Counted from the whole stretch's first letter, positions 7,880 to 55,199 are shown. The stretch: 61,554 bases of DNA, filler included, from Gonapodya sp. JEL0774 (GCA_027604505.1; 6 parts of 6 records of this genome joined end to end with filler, not necessarily neighbours in it), one strand, 5' to 3'. The notes: generated by a model not told the origin, from the sequence alone. Numbers and translations are program-made.

Positions 7880-10104
7880 ATGACCTCAATGACTCTGCCC
7901 TCCTTCTCCATCTCCTCTCTCTCCCGCATCTCTTCCTCCCTCCTGCCTTCCGCCTTCTCCCAACCACTCGCTTTCTCCCTCGGTAATGCCCCCCTTCTTT
8001 CCTCCCTCTCTCCTTCCCATCTCACCCTCTCTCTTCCTCCCTCCCCTCCTATCCCCCCTCTCCTTCCCATCCCTCCCTCCTCCTCCCTCTCCTTCCCATC
8101 CAGCCCCTAACACCGCTCCCAGACTCGCCAGGTCCTATCTCACTCGGAAAGGTACGTCCCTGTCTCTGTCTCTGTCTTTGTGTCCACCGAGGCCGCGCGG
8201 GGTGGTGGTGGTGGTGTCGGCCGAGAAACCTCGCTCCCTGCCGCAAGTGCCCTGGTGGACGTGGACATCGGGCGGCGCAGCGCGAGCGTCAGCGAGCGCC
8301 TCGTCCAAGCGTCAGCGACGGGCACAGTCCGCCGGAGGCGAATGATTTCAGCAGTCCATATGGGCCTTCACGCCGTTCACCCACGTGAACCTACCCCCTT
8401 TCTTCCCCACCCCCCACCTCCGCGCAAACCCACGGGGGGGTGGGCCGCTGTGACTCACGACGGGGCTCGCCGCGTGTCCGTTCTGGTTTCTCCAAACCAC
8501 CTTTCTCATCATCTCCTCATCACCCACCTCCGCGCAAACCAAACCCACCCACAGGCCCCCCCAAAATCGTCACCCCCACCGCCGCCGTCTCCACCATCCC
8601 CTCCCACTCCCGCATCTACGTCCACGGCGTCGCCGCCCACCCCACCGTCCTCACCACCGCACTTTCCCTCCGCACCGACCTCAGGCACGTCGAGCTCTGC
8701 CACTTGCACCTCGAGACTCCGAACCCCTGTGCCAAGGAGGACTTGAGGGACAGCTTCTTCGTCAACAATTTGTTCATCGGAGCCAATATGAGGAGTGCCG
8801 TGGACAAGGGGTATAGTAGTTATGTGCCCATGTTCTTGAGCGAGGTGGGTTCCTCGCCCAAGCGTCAGCGACGGGCACAGTCCGCCGGAGGCGAATGATT
8901 TCAGCGGTCCATATGGGCGGAAGAAGAGGCCCATATGGACCAATCTCGTCCAAGCGTCAGCGACGGGCACAGTCCGCCGGAGGCGATTGACCCTATGAGC
9001 GGTCCATGTGGACTATCGGACCTTCCGGTCATGCGTCAGCGAGGTGGTCCATCGGTAAAGGCAAAGGGGAGGCGGGGAAGATCGCGTGTGTGTCCCACGA
9101 GGACGGGGACTTCACTTTATACCATCGTGTCGTGGCCACCACTCCACACCACTTGGCATTCGACTCACCCTCTTCCCCACTCCCCCGACCCTCCACCCAC
9201 CCACCCCCCCAAAACAACAAAACAAGATCCCCACGGCCATGCGCCAAGGATACCTCCGCCCCGACGTGGCGTTCGTGACCGTGTCGCCGCCCGATAAGCA
9301 CGGGTACGTGAGTCTGGGGACCGAGGTGGGTGCAAGAAGAGGGGTAAAGGGAAATGGGAAGAGGGGATGGGGGCAATCGAGGAGTGACCGTCTCACCTGT
9401 TCCCCATCGCACCCGATCCCAACCGCCCACCCCCCCACCCCCCCACCCCCCACCCGCCCCACCCGCCCCACCCGCCCCGCCCAGGTCACCTGCGCCCTCG
9501 CCGCGTGCGAAACCGCGCCGACCATCATCGCCGTCATCAACCGCCACATGCCTCGCACGCACGGGCAAACCTTCATCCACTACACCGCGTTGGACTACGT
9601 CGTAGAGCACGACGAACCCTTACCGCAAAAGCACGCTGGCAAGACCAGGGACGTGGACCAAAAAATAGGAAAGATCATCGCTGGGTTGGTGCCGGACGGG
9701 GCCACACTGCAGATGGGAATAGGGGGCATACCCGACGCGGTGTTGGGGAGTTTGACGGGCCATAAGGATTTGGGGATTCATACCGGTGGGTAAGAGGGGG
9801 GAGTGGGGGGGTGGGGACGCAGGGACTCATGATGGCGCTCGGTCGGTCCCGTACTTGGGTTTGGTTTCTCATGCGCACCTTTCTCATCTCCTTCCTCACC
9901 CCTCCCGCCCCCACCCCCAGAAATGTTCCAAGAAGGCCTTCTCCCCCTTGTTGAACAAGGCGTTGTGACCAACCTCAAGAAACGTTTCTTACCGGGCCGC
10001 ATCGTGACCACCTTTTTGATGGGGTCGCAAAAGATTTACGATTTCGTAGACGACAACCCAAACGTGAACTTTATGGACGCGGCCATCGCGAATCATCCGG
10101 CTGT
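7880..10104 (+). CDS. acetyl-CoA hydrolase/CoA-transferase family I (4-hydroxybutyrate CoA-transferase-like), 3' truncated by contig end
   Basis: Spliced exons give SRIYVHGVAAHP, FIGANMRSAVDKGYSSYVPMFLSE|IP, PDVAFVTVSPPDKHGYVSLG, INRHMPRTHG, VPDGATLQMGIGGIPDAV, KDLGIHT|EMF, TTFLMGSQKIYDFVDDNP. The Ser/Leu-rich, acid-free N-terminus resembles a mitochondrial presequence. Confidence 0.93.
8278..8366 (-). repeat. copy of the short dispersed repeat in intron 2 of the CoA-transferase gene
   Basis: CAGCGCGAGCGTCAGCGAGCGCCTCGTCCAAGCGTCAGCGACGGGCACAGTCCGCCGGAGGCGAATGATTTCAGCAGTCCATATGGGCC is a near reverse complement of ~6590-6679. Confidence 0.85.
8853..9012 (-). repeat. two units of the short dispersed repeat with internal 13-bp hairpin, intron 3 of the CoA-transferase gene
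   Basis: CCAAGCGTCAGCGACGGGCACAGTCCGCCGGAGGCGA occurs twice. Perfect stem GGTCCATATGGGC (8906-8918) / GCCCATATGGACC (8929-8941). Confidence 0.85.
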
Positions 10105-10322
10105 TAGTGAGTGTGGGGAGGGTTGGGGGGGGGGGGGGGGGGGGGGCTGTGTGGGGGGGAAGGTTTTGGGGGTGGGTGGTTGTTTGGTTGTTTAGTTTTT
10201 TTTTTTTGTTGGGGGGGGAAGTNNNNNNNNNNNNNNNNNNNNNNNNNNNNNNNNNNNNNNNNNNNNTTAATTAATTAANNNNNNNNNNNNNNNNNNNNNN
10301 NNNNNNNNNNNNNNNNNNNNNN

Positions 10323-18655: not shown

Positions 18656-20541
18656 ATGCCTCCCAACCCAACAAAATCGAGCGGAGAAACTGAAACAAAC
18701 ACAATACACTCCCAGAAGAACATCATCACACCACCAGACTCGTCTACAAAGAAAATGGCTGGGCGGATCGACTTCCAGCACCCGAAGCTGGTGTCAGACA
18801 TCATCCAAACTTCTCTCACCCTGGAGCCTCACATTTCCACCACCGTCAACCCAGAGCTGCCCGCCAGCGTCTCCAGTGAGCGCATCGGTTTCTTGAAGTT
18901 CATCAACTTGCACTGGTATTCCCTCTGTATCTCGCTGGGAAGCGCTATTGGTGAGTTTGTTTCTCTGTGTCCTAAAATCATCCACACGTCAGCGCTCACC
19001 CATTCTGCTCTGCACTGAATACTTCCCGTACCAAGGTGGACTACTCTTTGGTTACGGTAAGTTCAGCTGTCTTATCCCTTCCTCGAAGGACATCTTGACA
19101 TGACTGCATGATTGCTACCACCGGCCGCTACAGAAATTGGCATCATCAACCAAGTTCTTCTCATGGACTCGTTTCGAATATACTTTGGTCTTTCATATCT
19201 CCCAACTGCGTCTACGGCAGACGGTGGTCGGACGTCAGCAGGTCTTCTGCGTCCAACCCCGGACGCTCCGGACCTAGAAGGGAACATTGTATCACTACTC
19301 CTCGCAGGAGCCGTACTTGGATCATTCTTCGTGTGGATATTTAGTGACTACTCTGGCCGAAGGACGAGTTTGCTCATTGGAACAATAGGTGCGCGCTCAA
19401 TTTGTCGTCAATGCATCCTGCAATGTCTCTGTTCTCATGGCGGAATGCCTGTTGTTCCAGGTCATATTGTTGGCTCCTGCATACAAGTGGCAAGTCAACA
19501 TTTGTGGATGCTATACCTTGGACGTTTTGTGGCAGGATTCGGGGTCGGGGTAATATCAGGAGTTGGTGAGTGGAAGCACAGGAGCGCACCACTTCGCCCC
19601 GAGTTCTCATGGAGTGCTCGTCGATCATCCATGACCGCAATCATGTAATTTTTAGTCCCCGTCTACATTGCGGTAAGTTTGCATGCTTTTTTCACGTTAT
19701 ATTGTCTAGTACTGAGTTGTGAACCGTTCTTCACCACTTGTGAACAGGAATGGTGCGTGAGCACTCTTTAACTCGCTTTTGCGCATTTGCGTCATCTTTT
19801 CTTATAATGCGACATTGATCGTTCATTCATCCTCATGCTTAGCGCTCCGGTAAGGTCTTTAGAGGGTCTTCTCAGGTTCGTGCTTCTTTGTGCTGATTGC
19901 ATATTCTGATTTTGCAGGCAAGTATTCGCGGGCGCATGATGGGTCTGGATCAGTTGATGATAACTATTGGTATCTTGCTGAGTAATGGTGATTTGCAAGA
20001 GTGTGAACGCAAATTACGGTTGTGGATTCTTACATGGAACCCCGATGTCCTTTAGTCGTCAACGCCATACTCATTGCAGCATTCGCCGGGGAGGACAATC
20101 ACCTCATCACAGACGATACAATGTGGCGAACCGCTTTAGGAGTTCAGGTACTGTGACTGTGTTCGTCGGTGGCTAACTTCACTTCACTCGTTTATCTAGG
20201 AGGTTTCTAAACAACTTTGGAACGCGCATTCCCCTCCTTCAGCTTGTCCCGGCAATCTTTCTTCTCATCTTTCTTGTCCTTCATCTTCTACCTGAATCGC
20301 CACGGTATCTCATCATGCGCGGGTACTACACCAAAGCTCTTTTGGTACTCAGCAAAGTCCTCAACATGCCTCCGGAGAGTCCCGAGATGCATGAAGGTGA
20401 ATTGTTAATTGTACCGTGCACGCGTACCGCAGTTATCGCATCTAACATTTCTCTACACGGGGAATTGGTGTCACAAGTCTACGACCGCTTGCTCGAACAT
20501 ATAAATGCCGAAGTCCGTGGCACTGGCGGGCAGCATCACGG
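18656..20541 (+). CDS. MFS sugar porter family transporter, 3' truncated
   Basis: IVSLLLAGAVLGS, FSDYSGRRTSLLIG, LYLGRFVAGFGVG, PVYIA, RGRMMGLDQLMITIG, WNAHSPPSACPGNLSSH region encoding QLVPAIFFLIFLVLHLLPESPRYL in the coding frame. Confidence 0.93.
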
Positions 20542-20656
20542 NNNNNNNNNNNNNNNNNNNNNNNNNNNNNNNNNNNNNNNNNNNNTTAATTAATTAANNN
20601 NNNNNNNNNNNNNNNNNNNNNNNNNNNNNNNNNNNNNNNNNTAGGGATTGATATAG

Positions 20657-28437: not shown

Positions 28438-30831
<2,394 letters not shown>

Positions 30832-31386
30832 NNNNNNNNNNNNNNNNNNNNNNNNNNNNNNNNNNNNNNNNNNNNTTAATTAATTAANNNNNNNNNNNNN
30901 NNNNNNNNNNNNNNNNNNNNNNNNNNNNNNNAATGAATGTCACATTACCCAACCACACCGGCGGCACATGAAACATAAAAGTCCCATTTACGGGCTTACA
31001 GAACCACCTGCCATACTCGCAGGCTGTAAAAGTTAATGTACATGCGAGTCACATCTACTGTGCTCTTACCAAACTATTGCGTGCCCCCAAATTTGTCACG
31101 CCGTCTCACGAGGAGAAAAGGGGGCGTAACTATGTAAGCAATGTGCTTTGATTCATCAGCCACCAAATGGACATATTAATGGAAGCTCGAGCAAGTATGT
31201 TATGTGATCGGGGGAAGTTTTGCCGATCAGTGGAACCATTGCCGAACTCATTCTCAAAGGCAGCCATCTTCACCCCTTCTCAGACCCCAACTGACGACAG
31301 TCGACAGTGCCATCAATTTCAGTGGAGTGTGACTTTCAGGGTTTCTAGAAGAGAGGGACTTTCGCTCGTGTGCAACGAAACATAAT

Positions 31387-32760: not shown

Positions 32761-33343
32761 ACAGAATGCGGTGCTCTTCAGAGTGTGATTGACTAAAGGT
32801 ACAACCCGTGTTCCTCCAGGACAATTTCGTTTGTCGGCCTCTTGTTTCGGTCCCTGAAAATGAGCTCTCCGCGTTCCAACCGATTCGGTTTGAAGATTGG
32901 ATGTGAGTTCGTGCTCTTTTTCGCGATTAAGCCCTGTCTTGACGTCGTGGGACCCATCGATACTCACAGAAATAATAAGATCACCGGCTTGCAACGGAAG
33001 GGCAGCGAATGTGAGGTGGTGCGCCTCCACAAACGGTGTTTTACATTGATAACCCTACACGTCTCGCGCCCTGCACTCCCGTTTACTTTACTTCCAGATT
33101 CCATGCTCGCGCCAACCCCAGATACCCGCAAGAACTGGAGAACAATGCTCGAAGCCGGATACGGGCGTCCGAATGTCTAGTTCTGACAGTCAATCACTAA
33201 GACCAACTTTCTTTGTCATTTCCTCCAATCGTGTATCGCGCTTTACGTTCCTGTCGCACATTACATATTTCATTGTCGTTTGGTTCGGTTCACTAATACC
33301 CGTCCGCCGAACGGACTCACAAGCAGTATACCACATCCCTTCG

Positions 33344-34910
33344 ATGTCCCAACCAATCAATCACCAAATTCTAGGCAACTTACAGCACATCAAGTTTGAA
33401 ATCAAGGATGAAATTGCTTTGGTCTCGCTGAACAGGCCGAGATACAGAAACACAATTGCACGGCGAACTGTTTTCGAGCTGGACTCAGTTCTGACGCTGC
33501 TAGGCAACGACGACGCCGTGAAAGTCATAGTTCTGCGAGCGGAAGGTGATCACTTTTCCTCTGGTGAGCATGCCCAACACTTTCCGAATGGTCCCACACG
33601 GTGTTCGGGAGGCTGATTCACAAGAATCCGTCATATGTATTACATCGCCAGGACATGACCTGGGCACTCCCGACCACAAGGCAGACGAGCTTACTAAGCG
33701 TTTGGAAGGTCAAGGCTTTAGAGGGGAATACGAAAAGTGGAGCTCTAATGACGTCGAAGCCATCTTGAGGATGCGACAGGTCCCTAAACCGAGTAAGATT
33801 GGTTCTCTTGGCAGTCGCGCTCGTTATGATTGGTTCTGACCCTGCATTACAGTTATATGCGCAGTGAAAGGCTATGTAATCTTTCATGGAACAGCAATCA
33901 TGAGTGCCTGCGATATTGTTATCGCTGCTGACAATGTGAAGATCATGCCAACTCTCCGTGAGTGCCGACAGCTGTTTAGCTCAACAAGCGGCGAGTCCAA
34001 CTGAGATTTCGGAGGTAGTCCAAGCCAATACCCTCCCATACGACCTCAATCTCAACACTCGCAAGTATCGGGAGATCGTAATGTCGAAACGATTTATCCT
34101 AGGAGATGAAGCCGAACAGATTGGATACGTGAACCGTATTGTGCCTCTTGATCTGCTGGATGAAGAGTGCTGGAAGTGCGCGAAGGTAATCGCAAAGTCT
34201 GATCCGTGAGTAAACCTAACGGAACATCAGAGACTCCGGGCTATCAGTTCGCGAAAATTTTATGTTACTTTAAACACACATACCAGCTTCCAGCTTCGGA
34301 TGATCAAGGTTGCATGTAACGGGGTGAATGGCGTTCTTTGGCTACTGGTAGTCCGATCCTTTCTCAATGTCACTCCCCTCACTATGCGCAACCTCCAGGC
34401 CCAAGATGCTGCCGGTTACACTTCGCACGTTCGTGCATCGCTGTCAGCATACGGCACGGTGAGTGTTTGGTGACATTCTGCACAATGCTCTTAATGTGGT
34501 TTATTTGACGTGCATCTCACCTTCAGAGTCGTGCTGGGGCGAACGACCCCTTATCCACTCTGAATTATAAGGCTGGCATTGAAAGCAAAAGTCTCGCACC
34601 CATTCCGGTGAGTTGACAAGTGACAATCCGATCACGTAATGCTCCTGATATTTCAATTCCCCACTAATTTCGAATATGAAACAAAACCATGTCCTCCTCT
34701 CACAGTCCGCAGAAAGCCCCGATCTCATGTACTGGTCGAAGACAGCCGTGTCAGAAAATGCTGGAAAGCGAATTGGAAAATTGTAATTCTGCTTCGACAC
34801 CATATGTTTATCAATCGACAGGACGACGAGTTCACGGTTCACATGTTCAGATTCAAATAATCGTCGATATGCAGAATATCATGTACAAATCCGATAGTAA
34901 CCAGGAGTAA
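33344..34910 (+). CDS. enoyl-CoA hydratase/isomerase (crotonase) family, multi-exon (3' end uncertain)
   Basis: IALVSLNRPRYRNTI, VKVIVLRAEGDHFSS|GHDL, VPKP..ICAVKGY, ACDIVIAAD, EAEQIGYVNRIVP. Confidence 0.9.
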
Positions 34911-35601: not shown

Positions 35602-37260
35602 CGCTGATATCGGACTCTAGGCACCGAAGGGTCTCTTTCAACTCCGATGGACGGCATGCAAACGCTGGAAAACCGAAAGGATTGTGAGACACATTATCCC
35701 AGGGAGGGTCACTGTACCGACTTACCGAGTGTGCCGTGGACGGGGCGTGGTGGGAGGGTGAACGAAAAGGAACGTTTTGGACCTAGAACGACATACTTGA
35801 CGTAGTGTTTACATGTCCACGTTTGAAAGGACACTCACCGAGGTGCTCGTCGAGCGATGGGTGTCGGAACAGGCTTGTATACCACGATGGTGGAAAGGTC
35901 ATCGAAAGATCTGAGATAAAAATGATCAAAACTTCATCCTATCTTCGCTCATGCATCTCGATTTCAACGCACGTCTCTGATGTCATGCTGGCGCTATCTG
36001 AAAAACCACCATCGCTCAGAGTTTGCAAGTAGGAGTCCTCCGTGCTGTTATCAGCTTCCACACCGACGGTAAAAGTTGCCTCGCTTAGCATAGGGGACCC
36101 GCGTGGAACGTAATGCGAGAAAGCATCTTCCGACGGTCGACCGGCGCCTTCTGATATTGGAGGCGAAACTGATCTCTGGAGACAATGAAGAAAGCAGTCA
36201 GGCCATACTTGGATTCAAAGATAATCTATGCATAGAAAACCTACATGTGAGGCGCTCGGAACATCCAAATTCATCGATGCTGCCGTCGTTTGTGACGCCG
36301 TACACGGTAAAGTAAGTGAGTGTCGATGCGGATTCTCGTGTTTTCGCCAGAGGCCACAAAATCGCCATTTCTTACCAGTTGCGTCTGCTTCGCATTGGTA
36401 CATTAGTACTCCTGGAACGTGGGAGTCCTCCAAAGTCAATTTTCCAAACCCTTCGCCGCCCAGAAGACGAGTGTGATGGATGGTCCAACAGCACAGAAAA
36501 GCAGAGCAAACGATAGCTCTCACCATATTCCTTGACTTCCCCACCAAAGTTGTACCCCGGATCGTACGGCATCTCGCTAGTCTGTCGAAGTAGGAGGATT
36601 GCAATAAACTTTCCCAGCGATCTTTTGCGAACTCGATATAAAGAAACCCCGCACTTTCTTGGCAATGTATCCATCGTTATGCAGGCCTGCGTACTGGTTC
36701 ACGGGCACCATCTGCTGTGGGTGTGCCAAAGAAAGCGCGCGTGTCGACGAAAATGGAAGTCCGGCACCATTCCGAAACTCCGCGTCCCCACTCACGGTGC
36801 TGAAACGTATGACGCTGATCCTTAGTTGTTTAGAGCACCAAAACCTTTCGGGCGGTTTCCGCAATCGATTCTATGTGTGGGTAAAGGCTGGGCGCGTGGT
36901 GTGCATGAAAGCTCCGGCGGCCCCGCCGCACTCACAACCTGGGGGCAACCCCAATTGACTGCAGTCCTCAGAAACTGAGCGCAAACCACGAATCTAACTC
37001 TATGTTTGATCCACCGTTCTCACAAGACGTACACAAGTTAGTTTCGTAAGAGGGCAGTAGTGTTCCCTTCATTTGTATAAAAGCTCGACATCAGTTTCCT
37101 GAGTCATCTTGGGTCACCTGATCCTGATGGCAATTCATGGTTGGTCTGCCATCTGATCAACATTGCAAATTTCTGCCGGTTCCGGGATCAGTTGCCTCTG
37201 TGGCCAAGTTACACTGCCCGCGTAATCACTTGCCATTCTGAACCGGACGAGTTTGACTGC

Positions 37261-38933
37261 ATGGAAAATCTCCCCAGCGAAGTTCTCGCTGTTGTGCTAT
37301 CACTCTGCTCACTCGGCGATGTCCTTGCGGTGGCTGGAGTCTCTCGAACTCTACGTTCTAAAGTGGAATTGTCCCTCACCGAAATTTTCAAAGCGCTCAC
37401 CACATCCACATTCGATAGTCTCACAGCAAATCGTCTCGAGTGCGGAGTACCGTTGTCCAGCGTGGAGAATGAGAGCAGGGTTGACCAATGGCGAACTGTT
37501 TCACCCACCTTTGCGGATTTTCAAGACCGATTCCTCCTCCGTCAAGCACTTCGGGAGAGGACCGGATATCTCTCTCTGGATCATCTTGTTACCTTGACTC
37601 AGATGCTTGCGGAGGACAGTGGCCGAAATGCGGTGTTCCTCTTACGGGGAAAAGGCTCCGACAGTTCCCAAAGCGATGGTATTCAAGAAAAAGGAGCTAT
37701 TCAACAACCCACGTATTCGCGGGTAGCGGACCAAGTACTAAGAGTTATATGGATACACTGGTCGCACGACAGTTTGGCGGCGGTCGCCGGATCCGAGCAG
37801 CAAAAGGTAGACGAGCTGCAAGATCCTTCAGCATATGAAGCTACAAGACGGAGCCAGGATCTGCTTGGTGCGTCCTTAGGACTTCTTGTTCTGGCCTACA
37901 CCGTTCGTAGGTATCCTGTCGCTTCTGTCCCGTTAATTGCTCTGAGCAAGTTACAATGTGATGGTCTCTAGAGATACCAACGTCCAGAGTAATCTCAAAA
38001 CTATTCTTTGATGCCAGCGTGCTAGCGCGAGTGAAGCGCAGAGGGTCTTCCACTGCCCTAGAGAAGCTGCTTGCCGCATCTCTAGCTGCAGTTCATGTGT
38101 GTCAACGCCGCCGCCTCTACCACCCAGCACAGGCAAGGCCGCCTGCAATGCTCCATCCTACTCGCCGACAAATATCCTCTTCAAATGAGCTGCTCCCTAT
38201 ACCCAGACTTTCAAGGCTAGTGAATGCGAGACTAAATGCGAGACTTCCCCAACAAATCGCTTCTTTGACTGGTGCTTATCGAGATGGTGACATTGGCAGC
38301 ACCAGGACGCTTGCAAGAACGCATCCCAACTACTTTATACACTTGAAATCTGATGGTTGTTCCCATCATTCACGGGTGATTACAGTAAGCACCAATGTTT
38401 GTATTCTCATGAGCAGACTCAACGTTCCGTCCATATCCACTTTTATTTCGATGTGGATTTTCTAGCCGATATCAAGCTCTCTAGACGCCACTGTTACACC
38501 GGACTTAGGACGTGCCATCAACTTCTCAGAGTATATGCTTACTGGGTACATCCGCGAGAGTCTTTCAACTGTGCCTCACTTGCTCTTGGGGGCATGGCGA
38601 GGATTCTATCAGTACCATCTTGGTGACAGGAGGATGGATCCAGCGATGACTTTCCATATTTCCATTTGCAAGGGCCAACGTTCCTTTTCGGCATTGGCTA
38701 ATGAAATATCTGCCTCACGGTGGCTCTTGAAGGGCCGCGGTCAAGACGGCAATGGAGACTTTACTTTGAATGGCTACATGTACCTCGACGGAACACTGAC
38801 TATCGAAAAGCAGTGCGGTACTCAACATTGGCAGTATGATGGAATGTTGTTGCCGTATTGTGTCGCAGGCGTCTGGGGGAACGCAGATAGGGCGCCAGAA
38901 GGGACATTTTTATGGTGGAAGGAGTCTCTTTAA
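37261..38933 (+). CDS. F-box protein, multi-exon
   Basis: N-terminal MENLPSEVLAVVLSLCSLGDVLAVAGVSRTLR. C-terminal beta-type domain GAWRGFY...GRGQDGNGDFTLNG...WQYDG..LPYCVAGVWG...GTFLWWK. Confidence 0.8.
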
Positions 38934-41095: not shown

Positions 41096-41326
41096 NNNNN
41101 NNNNNNNNNNNNNNNNNNNNNNNNNNNNNNNNNNNNNNNTTAATTAATTAANNNNNNNNNNNNNNNNNNNNNNNNNNNNNNNNNNNNNNNNNNNNACGAG
41201 AGGGCGCACAGAGTCGGCGGGATCTTATCGTTGAATGGCCAGTTCTCACCACCACCCGCCGTGACCCACCTTGCCCTACCCCCCTGTGCCCCCCCCCCAC
41301 CCCCCCCGCCCCCCACCACCCCACAG

Positions 41327-43858
41327 GTCCTCACCGACGGCGAAATCTACGACACCGACCCGGTCTTCCACCTGGCCTCCACCGTCTCCCTCACCACTCC
41401 CACGCGGATCTTCACATTGGGCGTGGGCAACGCCGTGTCGCACCATCTGGTGAACGGGCTGGCCAGGGCAGGAAGGGGTACCGCAGAGTTCGTGGGGTAT
41501 GGCGAACGCATGGAGGCGAAGGTGGTCAGGATGGTCAAGGCGGGGGTCAGGGGGTTTGTGGAGGATTTGAAGGTGAGCAACGGGGGGGCGGGGAAGGGGA
41601 AGGGGGGGGCCGGGGGGCGAGCATCTCTGGTCATGGTGGTTCTGTGTTTTATTTATTGCAATTTTTGTTTAATTTTTCTTTTCCTTTCTTCTTCTTTTTC
41701 TTCTTCTTCTTTTTTTTTTGTGTGCGTGGTGTTGCGTAGGTGACGTGGCTCCCCCAAGCCGTGGTCGACAAAGTCCAGCACGACCAGTCCTCGACCCCCA
41801 CTCCACCTCCACCCTACTCCGCCGCCGCCGCCCCCTCCACCGAACCCCACCACCCTGCGCCTTCCTCCTCGTCCTCCTTCTTCGACGAAGACGTCACCCC
41901 CGACTCTGACGACCCGCTCCACACGCTCGCCCCTCCCGCCCCTCCACCCGCGCTCGTCCAACAGGCACCCTTTTTCGCACCGCCCATCTACGCAGGTGCC
42001 CGGTACGTGTGCTTCGCCATCATCGACCCCCGCCTTCCGGACCCCACGGCCATCGTCATCACGGGACACTCGGTGGACGGGCCAATGAGGGTCGAGGTGC
42101 CTGTGGGGGACAACGCGGTCGTGGTAGGGGAGACGGGAGAGGGAGGCACGGAGGAGGTGGCGGTACTGCATACTATGGCGGCTAGGACGCTGGTGCAGGA
42201 TATCGAGGAGGGGAAGAGTTGGATGCACCGAGGGCAAGGGGAAGGGGCAGGCGGGGATGTGGATGAGGCGGTGAGCAGGGCAGAGGTGGTGAGGTTGAGT
42301 AAGAAATGTGAGTGGAAGAGGGTTCAGGTGTGGGGGTGGGGTTGTGGGGTGTGGACCAACCTTTTACTCACCGCGAAAATTGTTTGCATGTTTTTTGTTT
42401 TCTGATATTGTGCAGATGGGATCGTGTCCAAGTACACTTCGTACGTCGCGGTTCAGATCGTCGACGGAAGGGAAAGGGCGACCGGGATGCCTCAGCGGAT
42501 CGTGGTGCCCAGCAGGGTGAGTCATGCGAGAATCTCGTTTTAGTGGACGGCCACTGCCAACCTCACATGTGCACTCACTGCACAAACCCCCTCCCATATC
42601 CACCTCCTGTGGTTTTTGTCCCCCACCCTAGCGCGAGGCACAACTGGTGGACCAAACTTCCGTTAGTGCCATCCAAGCCATCATGCACGCCAACATCCAC
42701 AGCGTCGTCTCCCGGGGCGACAAGCTCGATGCCATCGAAATGCGCACGGACCAGTTGCAGGCGCAGTCTCGGCAGTTTGCAAAGAGCACCAAGAAGTCGG
42801 CCGGGTTCGGGTTCTCCATGCCGTCCATGCCGTCGATGTCCATGCCGTCGGTGTCGTCGCTGTTTGGAGCAGCCAACAAACAAGGCGCTCCACCGCCCAC
42901 CGCCCCGCCGCCGCCGCCGCCGCCCCCCGCGAAACCCATGGCGATGCCCGGTCCGCCTTCGTCTGGGGCGACCCCTGCCAGCCCCGTCTGGGTCGGCGGG
43001 TCTTCTCCGGTACCAGGGGATTCCAGACCCCTCAGAGCCGCGTATCCAATCGACGCTTCCTATTGGTGGGCTCCGCTAGCTCCATTCCCCGCACCTGCAG
43101 CCAGTCCACTACCCCCACCTGCAGCCAGTGCTCCTCTGGCACCATCATGGTCCGAACCCGCTCCAGCACCACCGCGGCAAGGCGATTCCGCGTGGCTACC
43201 TCTGCAAGCTCCACCTCCCCCACTTGCTCCCAGAGCTCCCCCTCCAACGTTCGCCTACCCGCCTCCGGTGATTTCGTCGGGTTCCAACGCTGCACCCCCA
43301 CCCCCACCACCGCCTCCTCCAGGTGCTCCCTCGATGGCTCCTCCGCCACAGCCAGAGTATTATTCATCCAGACCGAGTTCGTTCCGTGTTCCACCGCCAT
43401 CCTACGGAGCTCCAGCGCAATCTTACGGATCGCAGACTTCGCAAGCTTTGGATGATGCTCTACCGATGTCACCTCCCCTAGAGCGAAATTACCGGGTAGC
43501 GTCCACATTGTCGGACGGTGCAATCCCCACCCGTCGTGCCCCCCCTCACTACACCCCCCAGCAAATCCTGGCCATCCTCGTTTCTTTGCAGAACTTTGAC
43601 GGATCCTTCCCGTCCGACAACCGCCTCTTTGGCATTTCTCTCGCTATCACGGCAACCCCGCCCGCCGGCCGCACCCCCGAGGAATGGGCTACGGCGGTGG
43701 CCATCGCGCTGATGCAGGTTCGGTTGGCCGCTCAAAAGGACGAGTGGGAGTTGATGGCAGACAAAGCGGTGGCGTGGCTGGATGGGAGGGTTGGAGAAAA
43801 GGAGAGGAAGAGGTTGGTGGCGAAGACGGCGAGGGTTGTGATGGGCAGTCCGTGGTGA
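41327..43858 (+). CDS. VIT/vWA (VWA5A-like) protein, 5' truncated, with internal R-SNARE (synaptobrevin-like) motif and Pro-rich region
   Basis: VLTDGEI...RIFTLGVGNAVSHHLVNGLARAGRGTAEFV (vWA end), LHTMAARTLVQDIE, LSKK|YGIVSKYTSYVAV, IMHANIHSVVSRGDKLDAIEMRTDQL, LVSLQNFDGSF, WATAVAIA, DEWELMADKAVAWL. Confidence 0.9.
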
Positions 43859-44247: not shown

Positions 44248-45586
44248 CTACCGCCTTTCCAACACCAACTGCGGTCCACCCCTCTCCCCCGGCCCCATAT
44301 GTCCCGTATCGTTCAACACCACGGGTTTAAACCTGACCCTGATCCGCCTCTCGACATCGGCACCCTTGGTTCCACCCACTGTGTACACGAATGCTGGTCC
44401 GACCCACCCCTCCACCTCGGGGCGGGCAAGGTGGTGTCTGGAGAGCGAGACGTCACCGTCGAGTTTGACGGTGCGGGAGTTGGTGGTTGGTCCAGGGTCG
44501 TCCGAGTCACTGCTGGCGTCGTCGGCGTCGTTGACGGCACCGGCAGTGGTGGGTGTGGTGCTGGTTGTGGCGACAGCGTGGGAGTCTGCCAGCGAGGTAG
44601 GCGGGTCGGAAAGGAGAGAAGATGGAGGGAGCACCTCGCATAGTACGTCAAGGATGTTGACGCAACAGTTTTCGTGGTGGAATGCGGGCATGTATGCGAG
44701 GGAGTTGTAGATGAGGTGTGCGAGGAGGATGCGGAGGGTGCGGCCGTGCGCTGGGGACAAAAGTGGTAGAGGTCAAAGATTGAAGTTGTCGAGAGTGGTT
44801 GGAGGGGTCGAGTTGTATCGCAAATAGAGCCGAAGTAGGTTGTTACAATTTTCGATAAAACATTGCAGTGAACGTGTAAGTACAGCAAAGATAGCCAACT
44901 GACCGACGACCAGGACGGATCCTTCTCCACCACTCTCCACGATGCTCCCCATAACCGCCGCAACTCTGTTTCTGACCATGTTGGGACTCTCGCCCTTCTC
45001 GCCCGGAGGTTTCGCGTCGAAATCTCCTTCATGTTCCCAGCGTTCGATCATGTCCATGAGTCCTGGGGCGTGAGATTTACCCTCCCAGTCACCCCATGAG
45101 ATTTCTCGGAGGTCCGGATGAGAGTGGAGGGACGCAGTGGGGTGGAGAGCGTGCACGGCCTGCGCTGTCTCTTTGGCTCGCTAACGAAGTCGGTAGCGGG
45201 ATGCGCAAAGAGGGCGAAATTTTAACGTCTGCAATGAGTACGTCGTCCGTGAAGTTTCTTTTCGATTGGTTCGATTTCTTCTTTGAGAAATGTCAACGTA
45301 CTTTGAGATTGCTCGCCCACACGGCGCGGATGTCCACGTCCTGCATCCGTTTCCCAAGAGCCAGCGCTTGTCTCAGGCCACGATCGTTCAAGGACATATC
45401 GATTCCACTTCCCTGCAGCACTCTAGCAGCATTCGCGTCCGTTTCACCGTGTCTGCACAGAAAAAGCCGAGTGACATATCGCGGATTCGTGGGGTCCAGA
45501 GCGAGCTGTTCGGGGAACGGCGATCGAGGTGGAAAAGGTGTTGGTAACGGGGTCTGCGGTATTTGATGGCCCGCGTGCGGTGACAT
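44248..45586 (-). CDS. histidine phosphatase / phosphoglycerate mutase family protein (3' end uncertain)
   Basis: LFLCRHGETDAN...QG...LNDRG, SNLK|RAKETA, LREISWGDWEG, GES, VLVV|AHG, LNDTGH. Confidence 0.92.
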
Positions 45587-46113
45587 GGACGTGATGGAAA
45601 AGAGTTGGTGATTGGTGTGTTCACACACTTGCAGAAGCAGATACGTCACAAAACCCCAACAAACCTCTGCTCGCCCAACCTGGCCCAGAGTATCGCAAAC
45701 GGTCTGGTGCAATCTGGAGAGGTCTGGAGCGCTCTGGACTTGCTCAATTAAGAAACAAAGCTAATAGCAAGTGGGAATTCACGGACTATTATTTTGTGTG
45801 AGTGTGCATGCCGGTGAAACCGACCATTACAACATCTCGATGAGAGGTCTCCAACCTCCTTCTCGATTTTTCACCACATCCTGAAATCCGACGGTCAGAA
45901 GCAGTATTATATATGTAATATCCGATGTAGATCTATCCGATTCAAGCATATCTGAACTGAAAACGACAATCCGACTGATATCCGCTGGTTGCACTTTGCT
46001 CCACTCACAAAGTGCTCTCCACGTCAAATGTGCGGAGGAGGATCAAATACCCGGAAATGGATTCCACCCCGTACTCCAACCTTGTCTTTCCTTCACATAC
46101 CAGTGCAACAGCA

Positions 46114-47850: not shown

Positions 47851-50800
47851 TCATTTCTCCCTGAGTTTCTTTCCCGCAAATGGAGTTTGCGCACTTGCTG
47901 AGTACTGCTCTTCAAGCTTCCTCTTCTTTGGTGGTTGGTCCTGTGATTTCTCGTCCCGTTTCTCTCCCTCTGCTTTCACCTTGACCTCTTTCGTCCACTC
48001 CGGCCTAAACTTCGCGAATTCCTTCTCCAGCACTGGCCTGCGAACACGGGGGTCCACGGTTGTGTGCGGTGTGTATGAGGCCGATGTGCTGATCGGCTCG
48101 CTGCATGAGGCTGCTGCGCCTATCGGCTCGTCCGCTTTCTCGAGACCCAGGCCCCAGTGACCAGTTTCCGACTGAACCCACACCACCTCCATGTCCTCTA
48201 AACCATCCTCATCAGGCGTGCGCAACGCATCGACGTCGATGGGGTCAGAGCGAGATCGTTTGTGGCTCGTCGATGCCGTAACTTGCCTTTCTGTCTCACC
48301 TGAGACACGACGTGCGACTGTTTCGTCCACCTCAGATACACGACCGTTGCCGTCAACGAGATCCTCTGTCCTTGTAGCGTCTGGCGTGATCGGAACTGCT
48401 TTGCGTCCACTGAATATCGCTGTGCCTCTGACGTGCCTTCCGACAATTTCGAGTAGATCGATTCCAGTGAGTACGGATATTCGATCAACGTCCGAGAAGG
48501 ACAGCCCGAACTCGGTCAGCACCCTAAGGAGGTGACGGCGCGCTGCTGGGGTTGTGGCCAACGTTCGATCTGTTGCAGGTGACGCGGGGGTGACTGGTCG
48601 CGGATCATGCACACTTTGGTTTCCTGAAGGGGGAGTGTCACGCCGCTCATGCTGCGCTTCACCCTCATAACCAGGAACAGCTTGTGATCCGATATCAAGG
48701 CCCATCTCACCAGACTCTCCCGAAGTTCCAGCCTCTGAGCTATCCTCATCCTCGCTCCGTGACAACTGCGCACTCGGAACAAGCATTTCTTCCTGATCTG
48801 AATTCATGTCGGTGGGACCATTGCCATTCTCTTCCCCGTCAATTCCTGCAGTATGGTTTTGTGGGTCCTCTGTAAGGTCTTGCAGATCTCCATCCGACCG
48901 GCGCTCATCCAACGCACGCTTCACAACTCGCATGAGGACCAGAAGCGCGTCACGATACGTGGTCGAAAGCTCCTTGTGTGCTTCTCGCTCAGCTTTGAAA
49001 TGCACGATGTACTGATGGAGTGAGCAAAAACAGAAACGGACAGTGCAGGATTGCAGAGATTGGAGTTGTGGTTGTGTAAATCGGACAATTGAGAGAATGA
49101 TGAATATTCGAATACATGAACCGAGAAACCTCGGCCACTCGAAACCACACCAAAGTGAATACTCACCGTTCCCAGAAGGTCACACCTGTTGCAATGGGGC
49201 TTCTTGTTTGGGGACGACCCCCCCTGCTCCAACAGCCGGTCCGTACTCTCCTCCGTCGCAGCGTGGGGCCGCGGTGGCTTCGGAGAATCGCTGTTGGGTT
49301 TCCTGGACGATTTCAGTCGCAGGGTTAACCGTGCTGGGGGTGACATGGGTCTCTGGCCGGCGCCAGCGGTTGCTGTTGGGTTGGCTGGGTTGTGACGGGC
49401 CCCAAACATGACGACCGACGCATCTCCTGCGGCAATCTGAACACTGTACGGATCTGGCCCCGGACGCACGTTTACGATTCTGGGCTTCACCGACTTGGGC
49501 ATCTCCCTCTCTGAGTCCGATTCGGAATCGGAGGACGAACCTGCTTGATTCTGCAGCCTGGTGGCAACATCTGCGGCAAATGCAGCGAGGCCAAGGTCCT
49601 TCACAGAGTTGCAGTTCTTACACCGGGATGGAGCTGTCACACTAAGGTTCGTCCGGTTCTGTTGTGGTGGAGGAGGTCCGCGTTCTACCGACGGGATGTA
49701 CAAAGGACGAGCTGCTGGATCCAGCATAGGGTGGGGTTTTGGAAGTACCTCAGGCAAGGGAAATGCGACGAACTTGGTCGTGGTGGGTGCATCGGGAACG
49801 TAGATCACGCTGGTTGTTGAAAGTACGAATTGCGCGAGGGGGGCGTCGATACCAATTTCGCCTGCCTCCCTCAAGGACGACCTGCGGAGCTTCTTCCGAG
49901 CGGCTTTGGAGAGGGACTGAATGTTGTGGGTCCGAATGATTCCATGACCAGGCCCTGCGATGGGTCCGCTGCTGTTGGCAGCATTGGAGAAAGCGTCTGG
50001 TGTGGCTGGGATGAACAAGAACGGACCCGAATCTTGCGGCACCGTGGGCAATGTCATGTTTAATCCTGGAGGGTCTACGAACCCAGCCGCCGGTGTGGTG
50101 GCGGTTGTGGATACGGGTGCAGGACTTGCCAGCGGGTGCATCAGAGTCCCTTCCGGGCCGGTACTCACAGATTGGGTCGTCTCAATTCCCGAGGGCGTGC
50201 TTGAGTGTCGTGCGCCACCGCACCCACCGCGATCATGATACGCCGGCCTTGCATCAGAGCGAGAGCTCGCCCGGGAACCCATCCACAGTGCATTATCTTG
50301 CCTTGATGCGTTTTCCGTTGCAGACCGCCTTGCATCCGAGTGAGAGCTCGCCCGGGGACCCATCCACAGTGGATTATCTTGTCTCGATGAAATTTCCGTT
50401 GTAGACCGCCCAGATACAACTTCCCGATTCCGCTCCACTGCGACCACCCTCCCGACAACAATCTCCTTTCGTGGCACAAGCTGCTGCTGTTGCTGCACCT
50501 GCTTAGAAGCAGGTACCACGGTAGCAGAGCTCGCGGACACATCGAGAGCTGTATCGATTGGGAGTTTCGCAGATAACGCGTCGGCAGGACTGCTTGAACG
50601 GGGGATGTATTGCGCAGCGGTTCTGGCAGGCTTGGTGGCGACAGAGACAGAGCTTGAGGTGAACGTGAATTTACCTTCGGAGTTTCGATGAGTGTGCATA
50701 TTCCCCTCTGTATCAGGCGACTGGTGTGCAACCCAGACAGATGTGGGGGCATGTGTGCGAGGAATGACTGCCTATGCACTTACCGTCAGAGTCTGTTGCG

Positions 50801-51179
50801 CGCCGGTAGCCATAGGAGCAGCTCTTGAGTTATATTGACTCATCTGATTCTGATAATAGGCCTGTATCCAGTACTGTTCGAGCGTTCGTGAATCGAATGG
50901 GAAGCGGTTGGGAACGTCGTGACCAAACTGTTGGGGGATCGGGCCGGTTTGCGAGGCCGGAAACACTTGGTAGGCACCGTGCTGGGGGTACTGGGGGTAC
51001 GAAGCGTACTGGAATGGCATTGCTTGAGAAGCTGGGCTGGGAGGAATGGGTAAAGCGCCAAGACCATGCGGGGGCGGGATAATCTGCCCAGAAGGAGGCA
51101 GCGGGGGCCGAGTCAAGCTTTGCAGTGCTTGCCATCTTTTCTCAGAAGGCAGTGGCGGCGGGGATCTGTTTCTGCTCAT
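47851..51179 (-). CDS. large low-complexity hypothetical protein, multi-exon
   Basis: Long ORFs 50772-51263, 48921-50699 and 47851-49005 can be linked by GT-AG introns. Contains an internal 22-aa duplication (SRQDNPLWMGPRASSHSDAR / SRQDNALWMGSRASSRSDAR), a short coiled segment and basic PPKKRK. Confidence 0.65.
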
Positions 51180-51435
51180 TTGGTTGTTCGTTGGTTGTGA
51201 TCCATCAACCCTGCCAGGGATGACCCAACGGAGGCGGCGCTGAATGTGGGCGGTCGCACTCATGGCACGCGGCTGACCGAAGCCCGTGTGCTCGGTGGCT
51301 CCAGACTCCCCCCGTGTCTACTGTCGGTCGATAATNNNNNNNNNNNNNNNNNNNNNNNNNNNNNNNNNNNNNNNNNNNNTTAATTAATTAANNNNNNNNN
51401 NNNNNNNNNNNNNNNNNNNNNNNNNNNNNNNNNNN

Positions 51436-52934
51436 GAAAGTGCCTTGAATGCGCTTTCACCAGCCTCACCAATCGAGTTGACTGGAGTCAAAGTAGAGGA
51501 GAGAGAAGAGAGAAGAGAGGAGACCGTGTGTGTGAGTCAGACTCAAAAACTCTTGAGCGAGATCGAGCGGGAGGTCACACTCTGATACTCACAACTGAGA
51601 TCGAGCGACATCAAGGTGGAGTTGGTCTTGAGGGCCTCAGCAAGCGCGGTGGCGCCAGCGTCACCGATCGAGTTCCCTGAGAGGAGTAGAGTCAAAGTAG
51701 AGGAGAGAGCATAGGAGAGAGAGCAGAGAGGAGACGGTGTGTGTGTGTGCTCGTGTGGGGGTGTGACAGACTCACCGACTCTTGAGCGAGAGCGAGCGGG
51801 AGTTCACACTCTGATACTCACTATTAAGGTCGAGCAACATCAAGGTGGAGTGGGTCTTGACGGCCTCAGCAAGCGCGCTGGCGCCAGCGTCACCGATCGA
51901 GTTGTCTGCAGTAGTAGAGTCCAGAGGAGAGAGAGGAGAGAGAGGAGACGGTGTGTGTGTGTTTGTGTTCGTGTGGGGGTGAGACAGACTCAGCGACTCT
52001 GGAGGGAGAGCGAGAGGGAGATCACACTCTGAGACTCACAATAAAGGATAAGCGACGTCAAGGTGGAGTTGGTCTTGAGGGCCTCAGCAAGCGCTCTGGC
52101 ACCCGCCTCACCGATTGAGTTCCCTGAGAGGTGTAGAGTCAAAGTAGAGGAGAGAGAGGAGAGAGAGGAGACGGTGTGTGTGTGTGTTTGTGTGGGCGTG
52201 AGACAGACTCAACGACTCTGGAGCGAGAGCGAGAGGGAGATCACACTCTGACACTCACCACTGAGATCGAGCGACGTCAAGGTGGAGTTGGTCTTGACGG
52301 CCTCAGCAAGTGCGCTGGCGCCAGCGTCACTGATCGAGTTCGCTGGAGTCATAGAGTCGAGAGAGAGGAGAGAGGAGATGGCGGTTTGTGAGTGTGTGTG
52401 TCACTCAGCGAGGCTGAGCGAGAGCAAAAGGGAAGTCAACCTCTGATACTCACCATAAAGGTAGAGCAACGTCAAGGTGGAGTTGGTCTTGAGGGCCTCA
52501 GCAAGCGCTCTGGCTCCAGCCTCACCGATCGAGTTCACTGGAGTCAAGAGAGAAGAGAGAGAGGAGAGAGGACAGAGGAGACGGTGCGTGTGTGTGTTCG
52601 TGTGGGGGTGAGACAGACTCAGCGACTCTTGAGTGAGAGCGAGCGAGAGGTCACACTCTGATACTCACCACTGAGATCGAGCGACGTCAAGGTGGAGTTG
52701 GTCTTGAGGGCCTCAGCAAGCGCTCTGGTGCCAGCCTTACCGATCGAGTTCCCTGTGGTTTGGGTGGGCCGGGGTGGTGGTAAAATCATAATTATAGAAG
52801 ACACATTAACATCGCATGTCGTAACTCTCCATACGCCCTGCTGGACTCACCCGTCAATGTTAGGGTCGTGACGGTACTATTGCTTTTGAGCGCGTGGGCG
52901 AGCGCCCTTGCTCCGCCAACTCCAATTGACTTAA
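51436..52934 (-). repeat. tandem exon+intron array encoding 28-aa LRRs (xNSIGxAGAxALAEALKTNSTLxxLxLx)
   Basis: Seven full 84-nt phase-1 exons plus one partial. Most introns are homologous to each other (GTGAGT.TCAGAG.GTGA...GAGTCGCTGAGTCTGTCTCAC...(CA)n...(CT)n...AG). Unit length is ~180-230 bp. Confidence 0.95.
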
Positions 52935-55199
52935 CTTTGGTGGAGGCACGACAGTTGGAGGAGGAGGACAAGGTGAGAAGGGACTAGAGCGTCTACATTA
53001 CCAGACTACTAGGGGAGAGTAGAAACACGCAAATTGAGATACAACGCACAATTCACGTCAAGTTCGGTTTCGTTGTTGGCTATGTCTTGCAGCACCTCGG
53101 TTAAAGCACCTGCCCCGGCAGCTCTGCTTGTGTCTCTGGGAGCTTCCAATAGCAGGTTCGCTATTGTGGAGGCCTCGCGTTAGTACCCAGTGAATTGTGT
53201 GGTGTCTGCCAACTCACCATATTTCCAAGTCTCCAGATCTTTCTCCGATAAAATTCTGGCGGGATCGTCTTCCGGCAGCGTCTTCTCCCGGATATGGTGT
53301 ACACTCTTCAGAAGGGCCATTGCAAGTTCTAACTGCCCTTGGGAAAAGTACGCTCTTGCGAGCGCGTGCTGGGCAGCCAGCAGATCTGGATGGTCTTTCG
53401 AGAGGACTCGTTTCCTAGCAGCAACGACGAGTTTGAGCATGTCCACTGCCTTGTCTACTTGTCCGGTATACTCGTAAGCGAGGGCAAGCTCTTGCTGCGC
53501 CTCTAGCATAGAAATGTCCTGTTGTGTAAGGGCCGGATTTAGAAGACGTTGGAGTGTTTCATCCAGTTGGGCAAGCCAACTCTTTGAGGGCTTCCTGTCC
53601 CCCCCTTCTTGTTTTTGACCTTTCACCACCACAGAAAGTTGTTGTCTTCCAAAGACGCATGCTTGAAGCCATAAAACTGCTTCTGCGAATCGTCCGTCGG
53701 AGTTCAAGCACCGCCCAACCAGAAAACACAGGTCGTGTCTCGGTTCCAGCTCCTTTCCTTCACCACTTCCCAGTACCTTCACGGCGTGCGGGAGGTACTC
53801 CCTCCATCGCTCTCGATTCTCCCAATCATTGGTTGGAAATATTGAGCTGATGTGTGTGATCGCCTCTTCCATCTTTTTCGACGCAAGGCGCTGTGTGCAC
53901 AGCCAGTCCCATGCCGCCAGGTGCACGAGACGGTGGAGATCATACACTTCATCCTCTCTGTTGGTTTCCTCTGAGCGACGTGACACGAATGCGTACCCGA
54001 TGAGGGTATTGATCGCTCCTTCCATTTTCACGGCAGTCCCGGCTGTGGGCAGGATGGTTCGAGGGATGGACTTCCATTCGATACACGACATGAAGCCCAG
54101 GATGTCCGCTGCAAGGGGATTTTCTTGAGTTATCCGCTTGAACGAGACCACCCACGTTTTGGCCACTGTACTTTGGGATTTCTCGTAGTGGGTTTGGTCA
54201 TGGAAGCCTTCGCTTAGGATTTCCGTCTTCTCTTCATCCAGCATTTCCCGATATCTTTTGATTGTAATTGCATTAATATTCAGGTACGCTGCTGCTTGGG
54301 CAATTGCCAGCGGAAGGTTGGTGAGTTCTTTGAGGAGTTTTGTGGTGTTCAACTGATCCTCAAGCAATTCTTTTCTTTTGAGTGATTTCTTGAAAAACTC
54401 TACTGCCTCCTCGTCGCTCATTGCTTCCATATCAATGGTTTCAGCTCTTGCGAGGAATGTTCCGACCTTCAGAGGGCGGGTTGTGAACAGAATGAATCCT
54501 TGTTCACTCTGTGGAAGGTAGTAATCAATACCTCGACCCTGTTCGGTGTTGAACATTATCTCTGCGTCGTCGGCATTGTCTACGATCAAGAGCCACCGTC
54601 CGGCTGCATCCTCGCTCAAATATCGCTTGACAGCCTCCTTTATGTCCTCCGTTGCCCCAGTCGTATGAGAGATGCCAACTTTAATAGCCACCTCCTTGCA
54701 CGCCTGCTCAAAGCTCTCCAAACTGAGCGCAGAAAACCAGAAGATCGAGTAGTCTTGATATGTCTCCTTCACTCTGTACGCAAACTCGAGTGCAACCTGT
54801 GTCTTTCCCACTCCACCGAGTCCCACAAGAGCTGCCCTCTGACAATCCTTATCGTCAAAGAGTTTTCTGTTCAAGGTCGCGAGGACGTGATTCCGTCCCA
54901 CAAACTGTTTGTTCCTCGAAAAGGGAATGTAGTAGTGGGGTGGGGAGGAGCCAGGATTCGCATCAACTCTGGATTGAAAAGCACTGATGACATTCATGAT
55001 ATTGCAGCGGTCACAGGTACGGAAAATAAGCACGCGGAGCCTTGAATGGTGGAGCTTACCTCGAGCCTTGGTTGTTAGAGTTGCCGATGTGAACGCGGCC
55101 ACCTTCAATGTGTTGGGAGTGTATTATTATGTTGGTGACGTTACTCGTCGGTGCATGCGAATTTGGAAAGGTTTGTTGTCCATCATGGGTGGTCAGCAT
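51436..55199 (-). CDS. NLR-like receptor: N-terminal amyloid-like motif - NB-ARC - TPR - RI-type LRR array; 3' truncated
   Basis: Frame-consistent splice model: 55199-55060, 54983-53218, 53160-53050, then 84-nt exons 52934-52851, 52752-52669, 52537-52454, 52342-52259, 52123-52040, 51905-51822, 51676-51593 and partial 51481-51436. Walker A GLGGVGKT, Walker B WLLIVDNAD, ILFTTR, LPLAI, LHRLVH, kinesin-light-chain-type TPRs (HPDLLAAQHALARAY). Confidence 0.85.

Follow-up and report, generated by a model that had tools for sequence, protein, structure and literature searches.

An array of single-repeat LRR exons predicted to be spliced onto an NB-ARC-TPR exon in the early-diverging fungus Gonapodya

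Introduction

To what kind of protein does an array of exons belong, each encoding a single LRR and separated by introns that are nearly copies of one another, and how might its repeats come to differ? The question is raised by a locus of Gonapodya sp. JEL0774, a member of the Monoblepharidomycetes, an early-diverging fungal lineage. The original prediction, which described the exons, took them for a device that diversifies recognition through unequal crossover or alternative splicing. We present evidence that the array is likely the C-terminal sensor part of an NB-ARC protein in a fungus, a point that matters more than the exon layout.

No protein combining NB-ARC or NACHT with LRRs was found in fungi according to the available text of PMC2939053, and the portion consulted of PMC4986451 gives no LRR among 5,616 candidates, chytrids being without matches, and proposes that NOD/LRR was lost in fungi. 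The absence of LRR-type NLRs from fungi is restated in passages of PMC5658179 and of a 2025 review (PMC12881547), and excerpts of PMC9815663 describe fungi as devoid of NB-LRR, citing NBS-TPR as ancestral. In a scan of 122 fungal proteomes, LRR profiles included and with G. prolifera and Entomortierella among them, the accessible text mentions no gene with both NB and LRR, and the term 'LRR' does not turn up in the 17 supplements searched (PMC12258605). NACHT-PPR-WD40 receptors common to Mortierellomycota and Mycoavidus were described in a paper whose main text does not contain 'LRR' (PMC11291939). To the extent that these partial texts allow, a fungal NB-LRR is not in print in the open-access literature from 2010 to 2025.

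The window, that is, the whole stretch of 61,554 nt that was analysed, consists of six contigs of about 10 kb chained by N linkers (N runs with a short linker at 10223-10322, 20542-20641, 30832-30931, 41096-41195 and 51336-51435). Contigs on either side of the N runs are unrelated, and neighbours across linkers are not linked. The locus lies on the last contig (51436-61554, 10,119 nt), with the LRR array at the left end, truncated by the contig edge at 51436 that the last linker adjoins. Elsewhere in the window, Pfam recognises an acetyl-CoA hydrolase (9059-9793), a sugar transporter (19112-19648), a cytochrome P450 (26517-27134), an adenosylhomocysteinase (28795-29334), an enoyl-CoA hydratase (33053-33616), an F-box protein (37081-37971) and a histidine phosphatase (45293-45760). 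An intron-containing gene at 41196-43858 (plus strand), vWA-like by eye, has a proline-rich tail and a Synaptobrevin-like coiled segment (Pfam, 1.6e-10). The minus strand of 47851-51317 is taken up by long coding stretches of low complexity that contain cysteine motifs; an 81-nt duplication lies at 50246-50410, and a Pfam scan of two ORFs there matched no family. A translated segment common to 6214-6843 (minus strand) and 8111-8746 (plus strand) suggests an inverted duplication around the long G and C tracts near 5850-8100.

Results

The exon array and the gene predicted to contain it

Seven LRR exons of 84 nt lie on the minus strand at 52934-52851, 52752-52669, 52537-52454, 52342-52259, 52123-52040, 51905-51822 and 51676-51593, where the original prediction had placed them; its lists of the x residues in their LxxLxLxxN strand motif and of the junction residues (G, V, A, G, Y, R, F) also prove correct throughout. 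Each is preceded by AG and followed by GTGAGT and is made of 2 nt, 27 codons and 1 nt; one exon is thus one 28-residue RI-type LRR, and all seven share one phase. Repeats 2-7 are mutually 80-92% identical in DNA and form, with near-copy introns of 111-145 nt, a homogenised block (51593-52752) in which Tandem Repeats Finder detects a period near 218. Repeat 1 (52851-52934), which follows an AAG acceptor, is atypical, lies outside this block and is 51-57% identical to the others; it does not fit the near-invariant helix motif claimed for the array. Similarly, the introns that follow repeats 2-7 resemble one another as claimed (72-93% pairwise, mean 83%), but the two introns preceding those repeats, including 52850-52753 after repeat 1, are unrelated to the homogenised set, and the (CA)n/(CT)n tracts, although present, are imperfect. 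A repeat-plus-donor pattern gave 4 matches against 0 in 100 shuffles. All significant tblastn matches to an LRR query were on the coding strand and inside the array, and the same search found no spare or antisense repeat exons.

The extent of the array was incomplete in the original prediction, which overlooked an exon at either end. An LRR N-cap exon of 111 nt in the same phase (53050-53160, minus strand) precedes the repeats, and a homologous segment precedes the LRRs in two paralogues, P0002 and P0003. A partial last exon (51436-51481, minus strand), likely an LRR end cap, is cut by the contig end; it resembles the last segment of P0003, a resemblance suggesting that the array here probably lacks little and has six core repeats.

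The NB-ARC-TPR exon directly upstream was also overlooked, and the gene had been left unidentified. This intron-free exon of 1751 nt (53218-54968, minus strand) encodes an NB-ARC, two TPRs and a TPR end helix, and a 57-nt intron (53161-53217, minus strand) with a GTGAGT donor, a TACTAAC branch site and a TAG acceptor would join the TPR end to the LRR part. The NCBI model P0001, a partial hypothetical protein of Gonapodya sp. JEL0774 that matches the locus's long frame at 100%, uses the same 53161-53217 join and ends in the N-cap exon. Pfam finds NB-ARC in P0001 (7.6e-13, above the cut-off) as well as TPR_10/TPR_12, and the P-loop, Walker B, RNBS-B, GLPL-like and MHD-like motifs are intact. Eleven exons are predicted to join into a stop-free frame of 878 codons, in which a short N-terminus is followed by NB-ARC, two TPRs, the LRR cap, seven LRRs and the partial end cap; the weaker splice signals are the GTGCGT donor of the N-cap exon and the AAG acceptor of repeat 1. 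No NACHT matched P0001-P0004 in Pfam, by which membership of the animal NLRC3/NOD group is ruled out, and no ROC or COR family was found in the Pfam scans, by which ROCO identity is ruled out. In the ESM Atlas the whole protein falls in NB-ARC-TPR clusters only, and the tail in generic LRR_6 clusters.

Probable exchange between exon-intron units

Variation statistics were computed on repeats 2-7 only (six repeats), with one-sided Fisher tests. At the nucleotide level these repeats agree at 63% within the five x codons and at 91% in the rest of the exon, compared with 83% for the introns. Moreover, of the 55 pairs of informative sites, 32 do not fit a single tree, as expected from exchange between units, although recurrent mutation or assembly error could contribute. 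Together with the introns, this is good evidence that exon and intron evolve in concert as one unit, and exchange between units at the DNA level appears highly likely. Because the introns are near-copies and the exons share a single phase, crossover within introns would add, delete or reorder whole repeats; it would also alter the junction residue on the binding face. The number of core repeats differs between paralogues, with six here and four in the P0003 model (two of them identical), and repeat order and number here could be distorted by assembly.

Could diversity arise mainly in RNA instead? A fused receptor might be diversified by alternative splicing, with exon skipping producing many LRR faces out of a single gene and retention of the 57-nt intron yielding an LRR-less form. 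The 36 forward pairings of donor and acceptor (8 native and 28 skips) are all in frame with 0 stops, which bears out the claim that skipping or reshuffling exons keeps the frame. Several splice variants are described, in the part of PMC11378527 consulted, for brown algal ROCO genes in which each LRR has its own exon, and the paralogue P0004 is annotated as a read-through form. However, tandem duplication alone gives equal phase, and splicing cannot cause homogenised introns or site incompatibilities, which speak for exchange in DNA. It is therefore improbable that splicing is the main source of diversity; that it has some functional part is easier to accept, but still unlikely.

Paralogues and the predicted fusion

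P0002 (87% identity) and P0003 (76%) are paralogues on other contigs (12 and 40 kb) and combine NB-ARC, TPR and LRR_6, the last at 2.5e-11 in P0002 and 5.7e-23 in P0003 (Pfam). The P0003 model consists of an N-cap, one atypical repeat, the four core repeats and an end cap. Since both share the domain order on contigs of their own, this order does not stem from a single misassembly, and with the junction common to three loci an assembly chimera is ruled out. The annotated end of P0004 results from read-through of the fusion intron; because its C-terminal peptide is identical at 9 of 12 residues to the read-through peptide here, P0004 probably has the same intron. All four paralogue models retain four of the five NB-ARC motifs intact; the RNBS-B stretch is missing from the P0003 model.

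A transcript that fuses NB-ARC, TPRs and LRRs is, judging from gene structure, very probable, and at the level of gene models the C-terminal LRRs belong to the same polypeptide (the 11-exon frame here, LRR_6 in P0002 and P0003). If instead a short NB-ARC-TPR gene lay beside a separate or decayed LRR gene, the fusion would be a prediction artefact. An in-frame stop 12 codons past the fusion donor, the annotation of P0004 and the partial state of P0001 agree with two genes. But merely 57 nt separate the parts, with donor, TACTAAC and acceptor in frame, no in-frame ATG occurs in the N-cap exon, and order and frame are kept at three loci with 76-87% identity, so that we find two genes quite improbable.

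Variation at the strand positions

The concave face of RI-type LRRs is formed by their strands. In an AlphaFold model of P0003 (43-sequence alignment; mean pLDDT 70, pTM 0.44; TPR-LRR linker below 50), the helix-strand period is 28, the x residues lie in or beside strands, and the N-cap is modelled as helix plus strand. The best Foldseek matches are NOD2 and NLRPs at a TM of about 0.2, which indicates shared parts, not a shared arrangement. Among paralogues the strand residues differ and the helices are shared.

Within the array, x codons show variation at 8 of their 10 first- and second-position sites. Other codons do so at 6 of 46 such sites (p=7.5e-5), and the corresponding figures are 8 of 23 for third positions (p=0.021) and 37 of 103 for ungapped intron columns (p=0.009). 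Removal of the junction codon leaves 6 of 8 x sites variable (p=0.06 versus third positions, 0.037 versus introns). Pairwise pN/pS is 0.42/0.28 in x codons, with few synonymous sites and non-independent pairs, and 0.065/0.14 in the other codons, where pairs are again non-independent. Evidence for diversifying selection at the strand positions is thus moderate: the expected excess of non-synonymous change is seen between x codons and the rest, and is slight within the x codons themselves. As to recognition diversifying by unequal crossover, its two expected signatures, concerted evolution and excess change at x positions, are both present, which upholds that part of the original prediction in part.

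The same data might describe a real but young fusion that is no immune sensor, its array expanded by slippage-prone crossover and its strand positions unconstrained. The x-codon pN/pS of only about 1.5 is noisy, significance drops without the junction codon, and no ligand or effector is known. Against this, x sites vary more than introns, with or without the junction codon, the helix codons are conserved, and four of the five NB-ARC motifs persist in the four paralogue models; we rate this reading marginally below that of two genes. Given the fusion, a sensor function seems well favoured.

A predicted first exon with a partial amyloid-like motif

Upstream of the NB-ARC-TPR exon, a predicted first exon of 46 codons plus 2 nt (55060-55199, minus strand) has a GTAAGC donor and joins in frame; it lies outside the NCBI model, which begins at a later ATG. 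It contains a partial HET-s-like (HRAM-like) motif. HET-S was the only Pfam family matched and fell below the cut-off (E=0.034, 14.5 bits; cut-off 24.3). HRAM motifs, in the text consulted of PMC4518210, have N/Q/H at position 3, hydrophobic residues at 5, 8, 10, 16 and 18, R/K at 15 and G at 19; here positions 3, 5, 15, 16, 18, 19 and 20 fit, and 8 and 10, two core positions, misfit. A motif pattern, written post hoc, matched twice in the 123,104 six-frame residues of the window, once at this exon, and in none of 229 annotated N-termini of relatives; phmmer with exon 1 returned nothing among the proteins collected. HRAM-type NLRs commonly, though not universally, lie next to the gene of a HeLo-type effector in which a matching motif occurs twice. 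Ten upstream ORFs, a set from which intron-rich genes may escape, contained no effector family by Pfam, and the other flank is off the contig. Amyloid signalling through the first exon is a lead, and one that we are inclined to doubt.

Origin of the NB-ARC-TPR part

The 240 relatives listed are the best 120 of 1758 near-length and the best 120 of 867 longer matches. Four are from Gonapodya, and the other organism-named rows are from filamentous ascomycetes save one from Quercus suber (oak), which we take for fungal contamination; other chytrid-grade, zygomycete or basidiomycete names do not occur among the 240. LRR motifs are present in P0002 and P0003 and in none of the 236 non-Gonapodya relatives. 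Among the matches listed, the 21 best ascomycete-type proteins share 47-56% identity over the NB-ARC region (about 380 residues). Bacterial NB-ARC relatives, from a scan of 11 of 64 parts, reach only 23-32%, which makes a bacterial donor unlikely. The 236 relatives have a median of 6 TPR-linked motifs and end a median of 37 residues after the last; in Gonapodya there are two TPRs only, and the splice donor lies about 20 residues past the last TPR motif. As this is near the relatives' usual C-terminus, the LRRs would have been appended close to the old end of the protein.

Trees of the NB-ARC were built from hand-picked rows (91 of 270 domains in the first; 62 in later trees and the AU test, after the removal of 29 rows that were long-branch or near-duplicate, P0002 and eight bacteria among them) and contain no basidiomycete or other early-diverging fungal rows. 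Gonapodya is sister to the ascomycetes in two quick trees (83-86, unstarred), the first of which places one long-branch Aspergillus row outside both, and sits in a basal polytomy in the careful tree, where Gonapodya and ascomycete NB-ARCs group against bacteria (100/100). The AU test did not reject a grouping with two other rows, chosen after the tree was seen (p-AU 0.615), and no tree nests Gonapodya within ascomycetes. A horizontal origin from an ascomycete-type gene is, on balance, the explanation we lean towards, because of distribution and identity; the tree does not show it.

Other accounts of this origin, a contig from another fungus, namely a contaminating ascomycete, or vertical inheritance of the NB-ARC (which concerns the origin only), could appeal to the ascomycete-like NB-ARC in one long intron-free exon and, for the latter, to a basal position compatible with the trees; they appear very improbable, since the tetranucleotide profile (r 0.27-0.50) and GTGAGT-dominated donors match the five neighbouring contigs and no ascomycete, basidiomycete or other Dikarya name occurs among the 120 LRR-part relatives listed, and since vertical descent needs many lineage losses and unusually slow change.

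LRR modules and NACHT in Mortierellaceae

The 120 listed LRR-part relatives come mostly from Mortierellaceae, corals, vertebrate NLRC3 and rotifers. P0212 of Linnemannia hyalina has a NACHT and 12 LRR motifs. A search with it against 1.84 billion representatives, in which the query favours LRR-bearing matches, gave, with relatives from the LRR-part search included, 40 proteins matching strongly in the NACHT region, 6 of them with LRRs. These six (P0212, P0360, P0374, P0382, P0417 and P0430) are from five Mortierellaceae taxa: two L. hyalina paralogues, whose NACHTs are 99% identical and which have 12 and 6 LRR motifs, and one each from Dissophora ornata, Mortierella sp. GBA30, M. alpina and L. 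zychae. Pfam NACHT is above the cut-off in three and just below it in three, and an ARM_5 domain lies upstream of NACHT in three. The six, being automatic gene models in which neighbouring genes could be merged, suggest a second fungal origin of NOD plus LRR. In these models and the Mortierellaceae RI-like LRR proteins the repeat unit is very similar to that of Gonapodya, the best repeats matching the majority unit of the window at 20-22 of 27 residues; in place of NB-ARC the six have NACHT.

In metagenomes, the DNA pattern of repeat plus donor matched 0 loci. With the donor omitted it matched 27, whose organism is assigned by similarity and in which the repeats form long open frames. Since these arrays run as open frames, the one-repeat-per-exon layout seems special to Gonapodya among the material examined.

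Most of the Mortierellaceae RI-like proteins among the listed LRR-part relatives lack a Walker A motif and do not count as NLRs. A large Mortierellaceae family of 900-1300 aa (P0121-P0235, for example P0121 and P0159) shares an N-terminal region of about 600 residues in which neither a Pfam family nor a P-loop is found; behind it come as many as 19 near-identical LRRs whose strand residues vary. These proteins are candidate receptors of another kind. The LRR module appears promiscuous, since among the metagenome loci L009, L011, L020, L024 and L026 it follows an F-box-like start (by eye) in four and Sel1-like repeats in one. P0201 begins like the Gonapodya LRR N-cap (by eye) and continues with LRRs and then TPRs, the reverse order.

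Discussion

The LRR array, predicted to be spliced onto an NB-ARC-TPR exon, is likely to be part of a fungal NBS-LRR receptor whose LRR face is diversifying by crossover or conversion. We suggest that an ascomycete-type NB-ARC-TPR gene was acquired horizontally and kept two TPRs, that it became joined to an RI-type LRR cassette through a splice donor close to its former C-terminus, and that the fused gene was then duplicated into at least four paralogues. Working in the STAND/NLR style, the protein would rest in an ADP-bound closed state, bind a ligand, likely non-self, on the concave LRR strands, exchange ADP for ATP and oligomerise; the short N-terminus might then signal, perhaps with an unlinked death effector as the target of amyloid templating. 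The LRR face would diversify as exon-intron units undergo unequal crossover or gene conversion.

On a wider view, NBS-LRR immune receptors may have arisen de novo at least twice in early-diverging fungi, in Gonapodya from a transferred NB-ARC-TPR with vestigial TPRs, an amyloid tip and a self-reshuffling LRR cassette, and in Mortierellaceae from NACHT and the same LRR; we put this forward tentatively, as a scenario that falls somewhat short of being favoured. If true, a four-member monoblepharid family and six Mortierellaceae models would overturn the no-LRR rule for fungal NLRs and imply further independent NBS-LRR origins beyond plants and animals. The retained TPRs would then represent a living intermediate for the proposal, cited in the text seen of PMC9815663, that NBS-TPR is ancestral. 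The exon layout makes the mechanism of diversification directly testable.

The closest known systems share parts of this design. The ascomycete (Pezizomycotina) NB-ARC-TPR NLRs, often annotated as kinesin-light-chain-like or nephrocystin-3-like, have the same NB-ARC subfamily and TPR type, and the amyloid/NB-ARC/TPR architecture counts 68 genes in Sordariales in the PMC12258605 supplement consulted. Unlike them, the Gonapodya protein has two TPRs followed by LRRs, its TPR array is not the C-terminal sensor, and its host is a monoblepharid. Plant NBS-LRR proteins likewise join NB-ARC to C-terminal LRRs (PMC4986451, in the passage available) with variable strand residues. The Gonapodya NB-ARC, however, is of another subfamily, TPRs intervene, the repeats are 28-residue and RI-type with one exon each, and CC, TIR or RPW8 is lacking; we infer that it was assembled independently of the plant proteins.

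Animal NLRC3/NOD2-type NLRs and coral NACHT-LRRs resemble the array in their 28-residue RI-type LRR_6 repeats, and differ in that the Gonapodya protein has NB-ARC, not NACHT, and no CARD or PYD, and combines homogenised introns and strand hypervariability inside one gene. Exons of 84 nt with one LRR each occur in animal NLR genes. The part seen of PMC5536018 offers no confirmation of such exons. For repeat-exon shuffling, the precedent claimed in brown algae is indeed published: ROCO genes have one repeat per exon with a 2+1 codon split and positive selection on the concave face (PMC3341825 and PMC11378527, as far as consulted). The symmetric one-repeat exons and the 2+1 split are shared with Gonapodya; in the algae the LRR exons measure 72 nt and belong to a ROC GTPase, every NB-ARC protein has TPRs, and spare or antisense repeat exons within introns are a further trait. 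The precedent in fungal HNWD genes is likewise in print, with repeat homogenisation and a proposal of unequal crossover in Podospora NLRs (PMC13449251, in the excerpt available). Like het-d and het-e, the array has near-identical repeats with few hypervariable positions, the pattern by which het-e-type genes are recognised; in those genes the repeats are WD40, ANK or TPR, not LRR, and in Gonapodya the unit of homogenisation is exon plus intron. The exon layout alone is thus a further instance of a published pattern, and the new part is the predicted NB-ARC-TPR-LRR order in a fungus.
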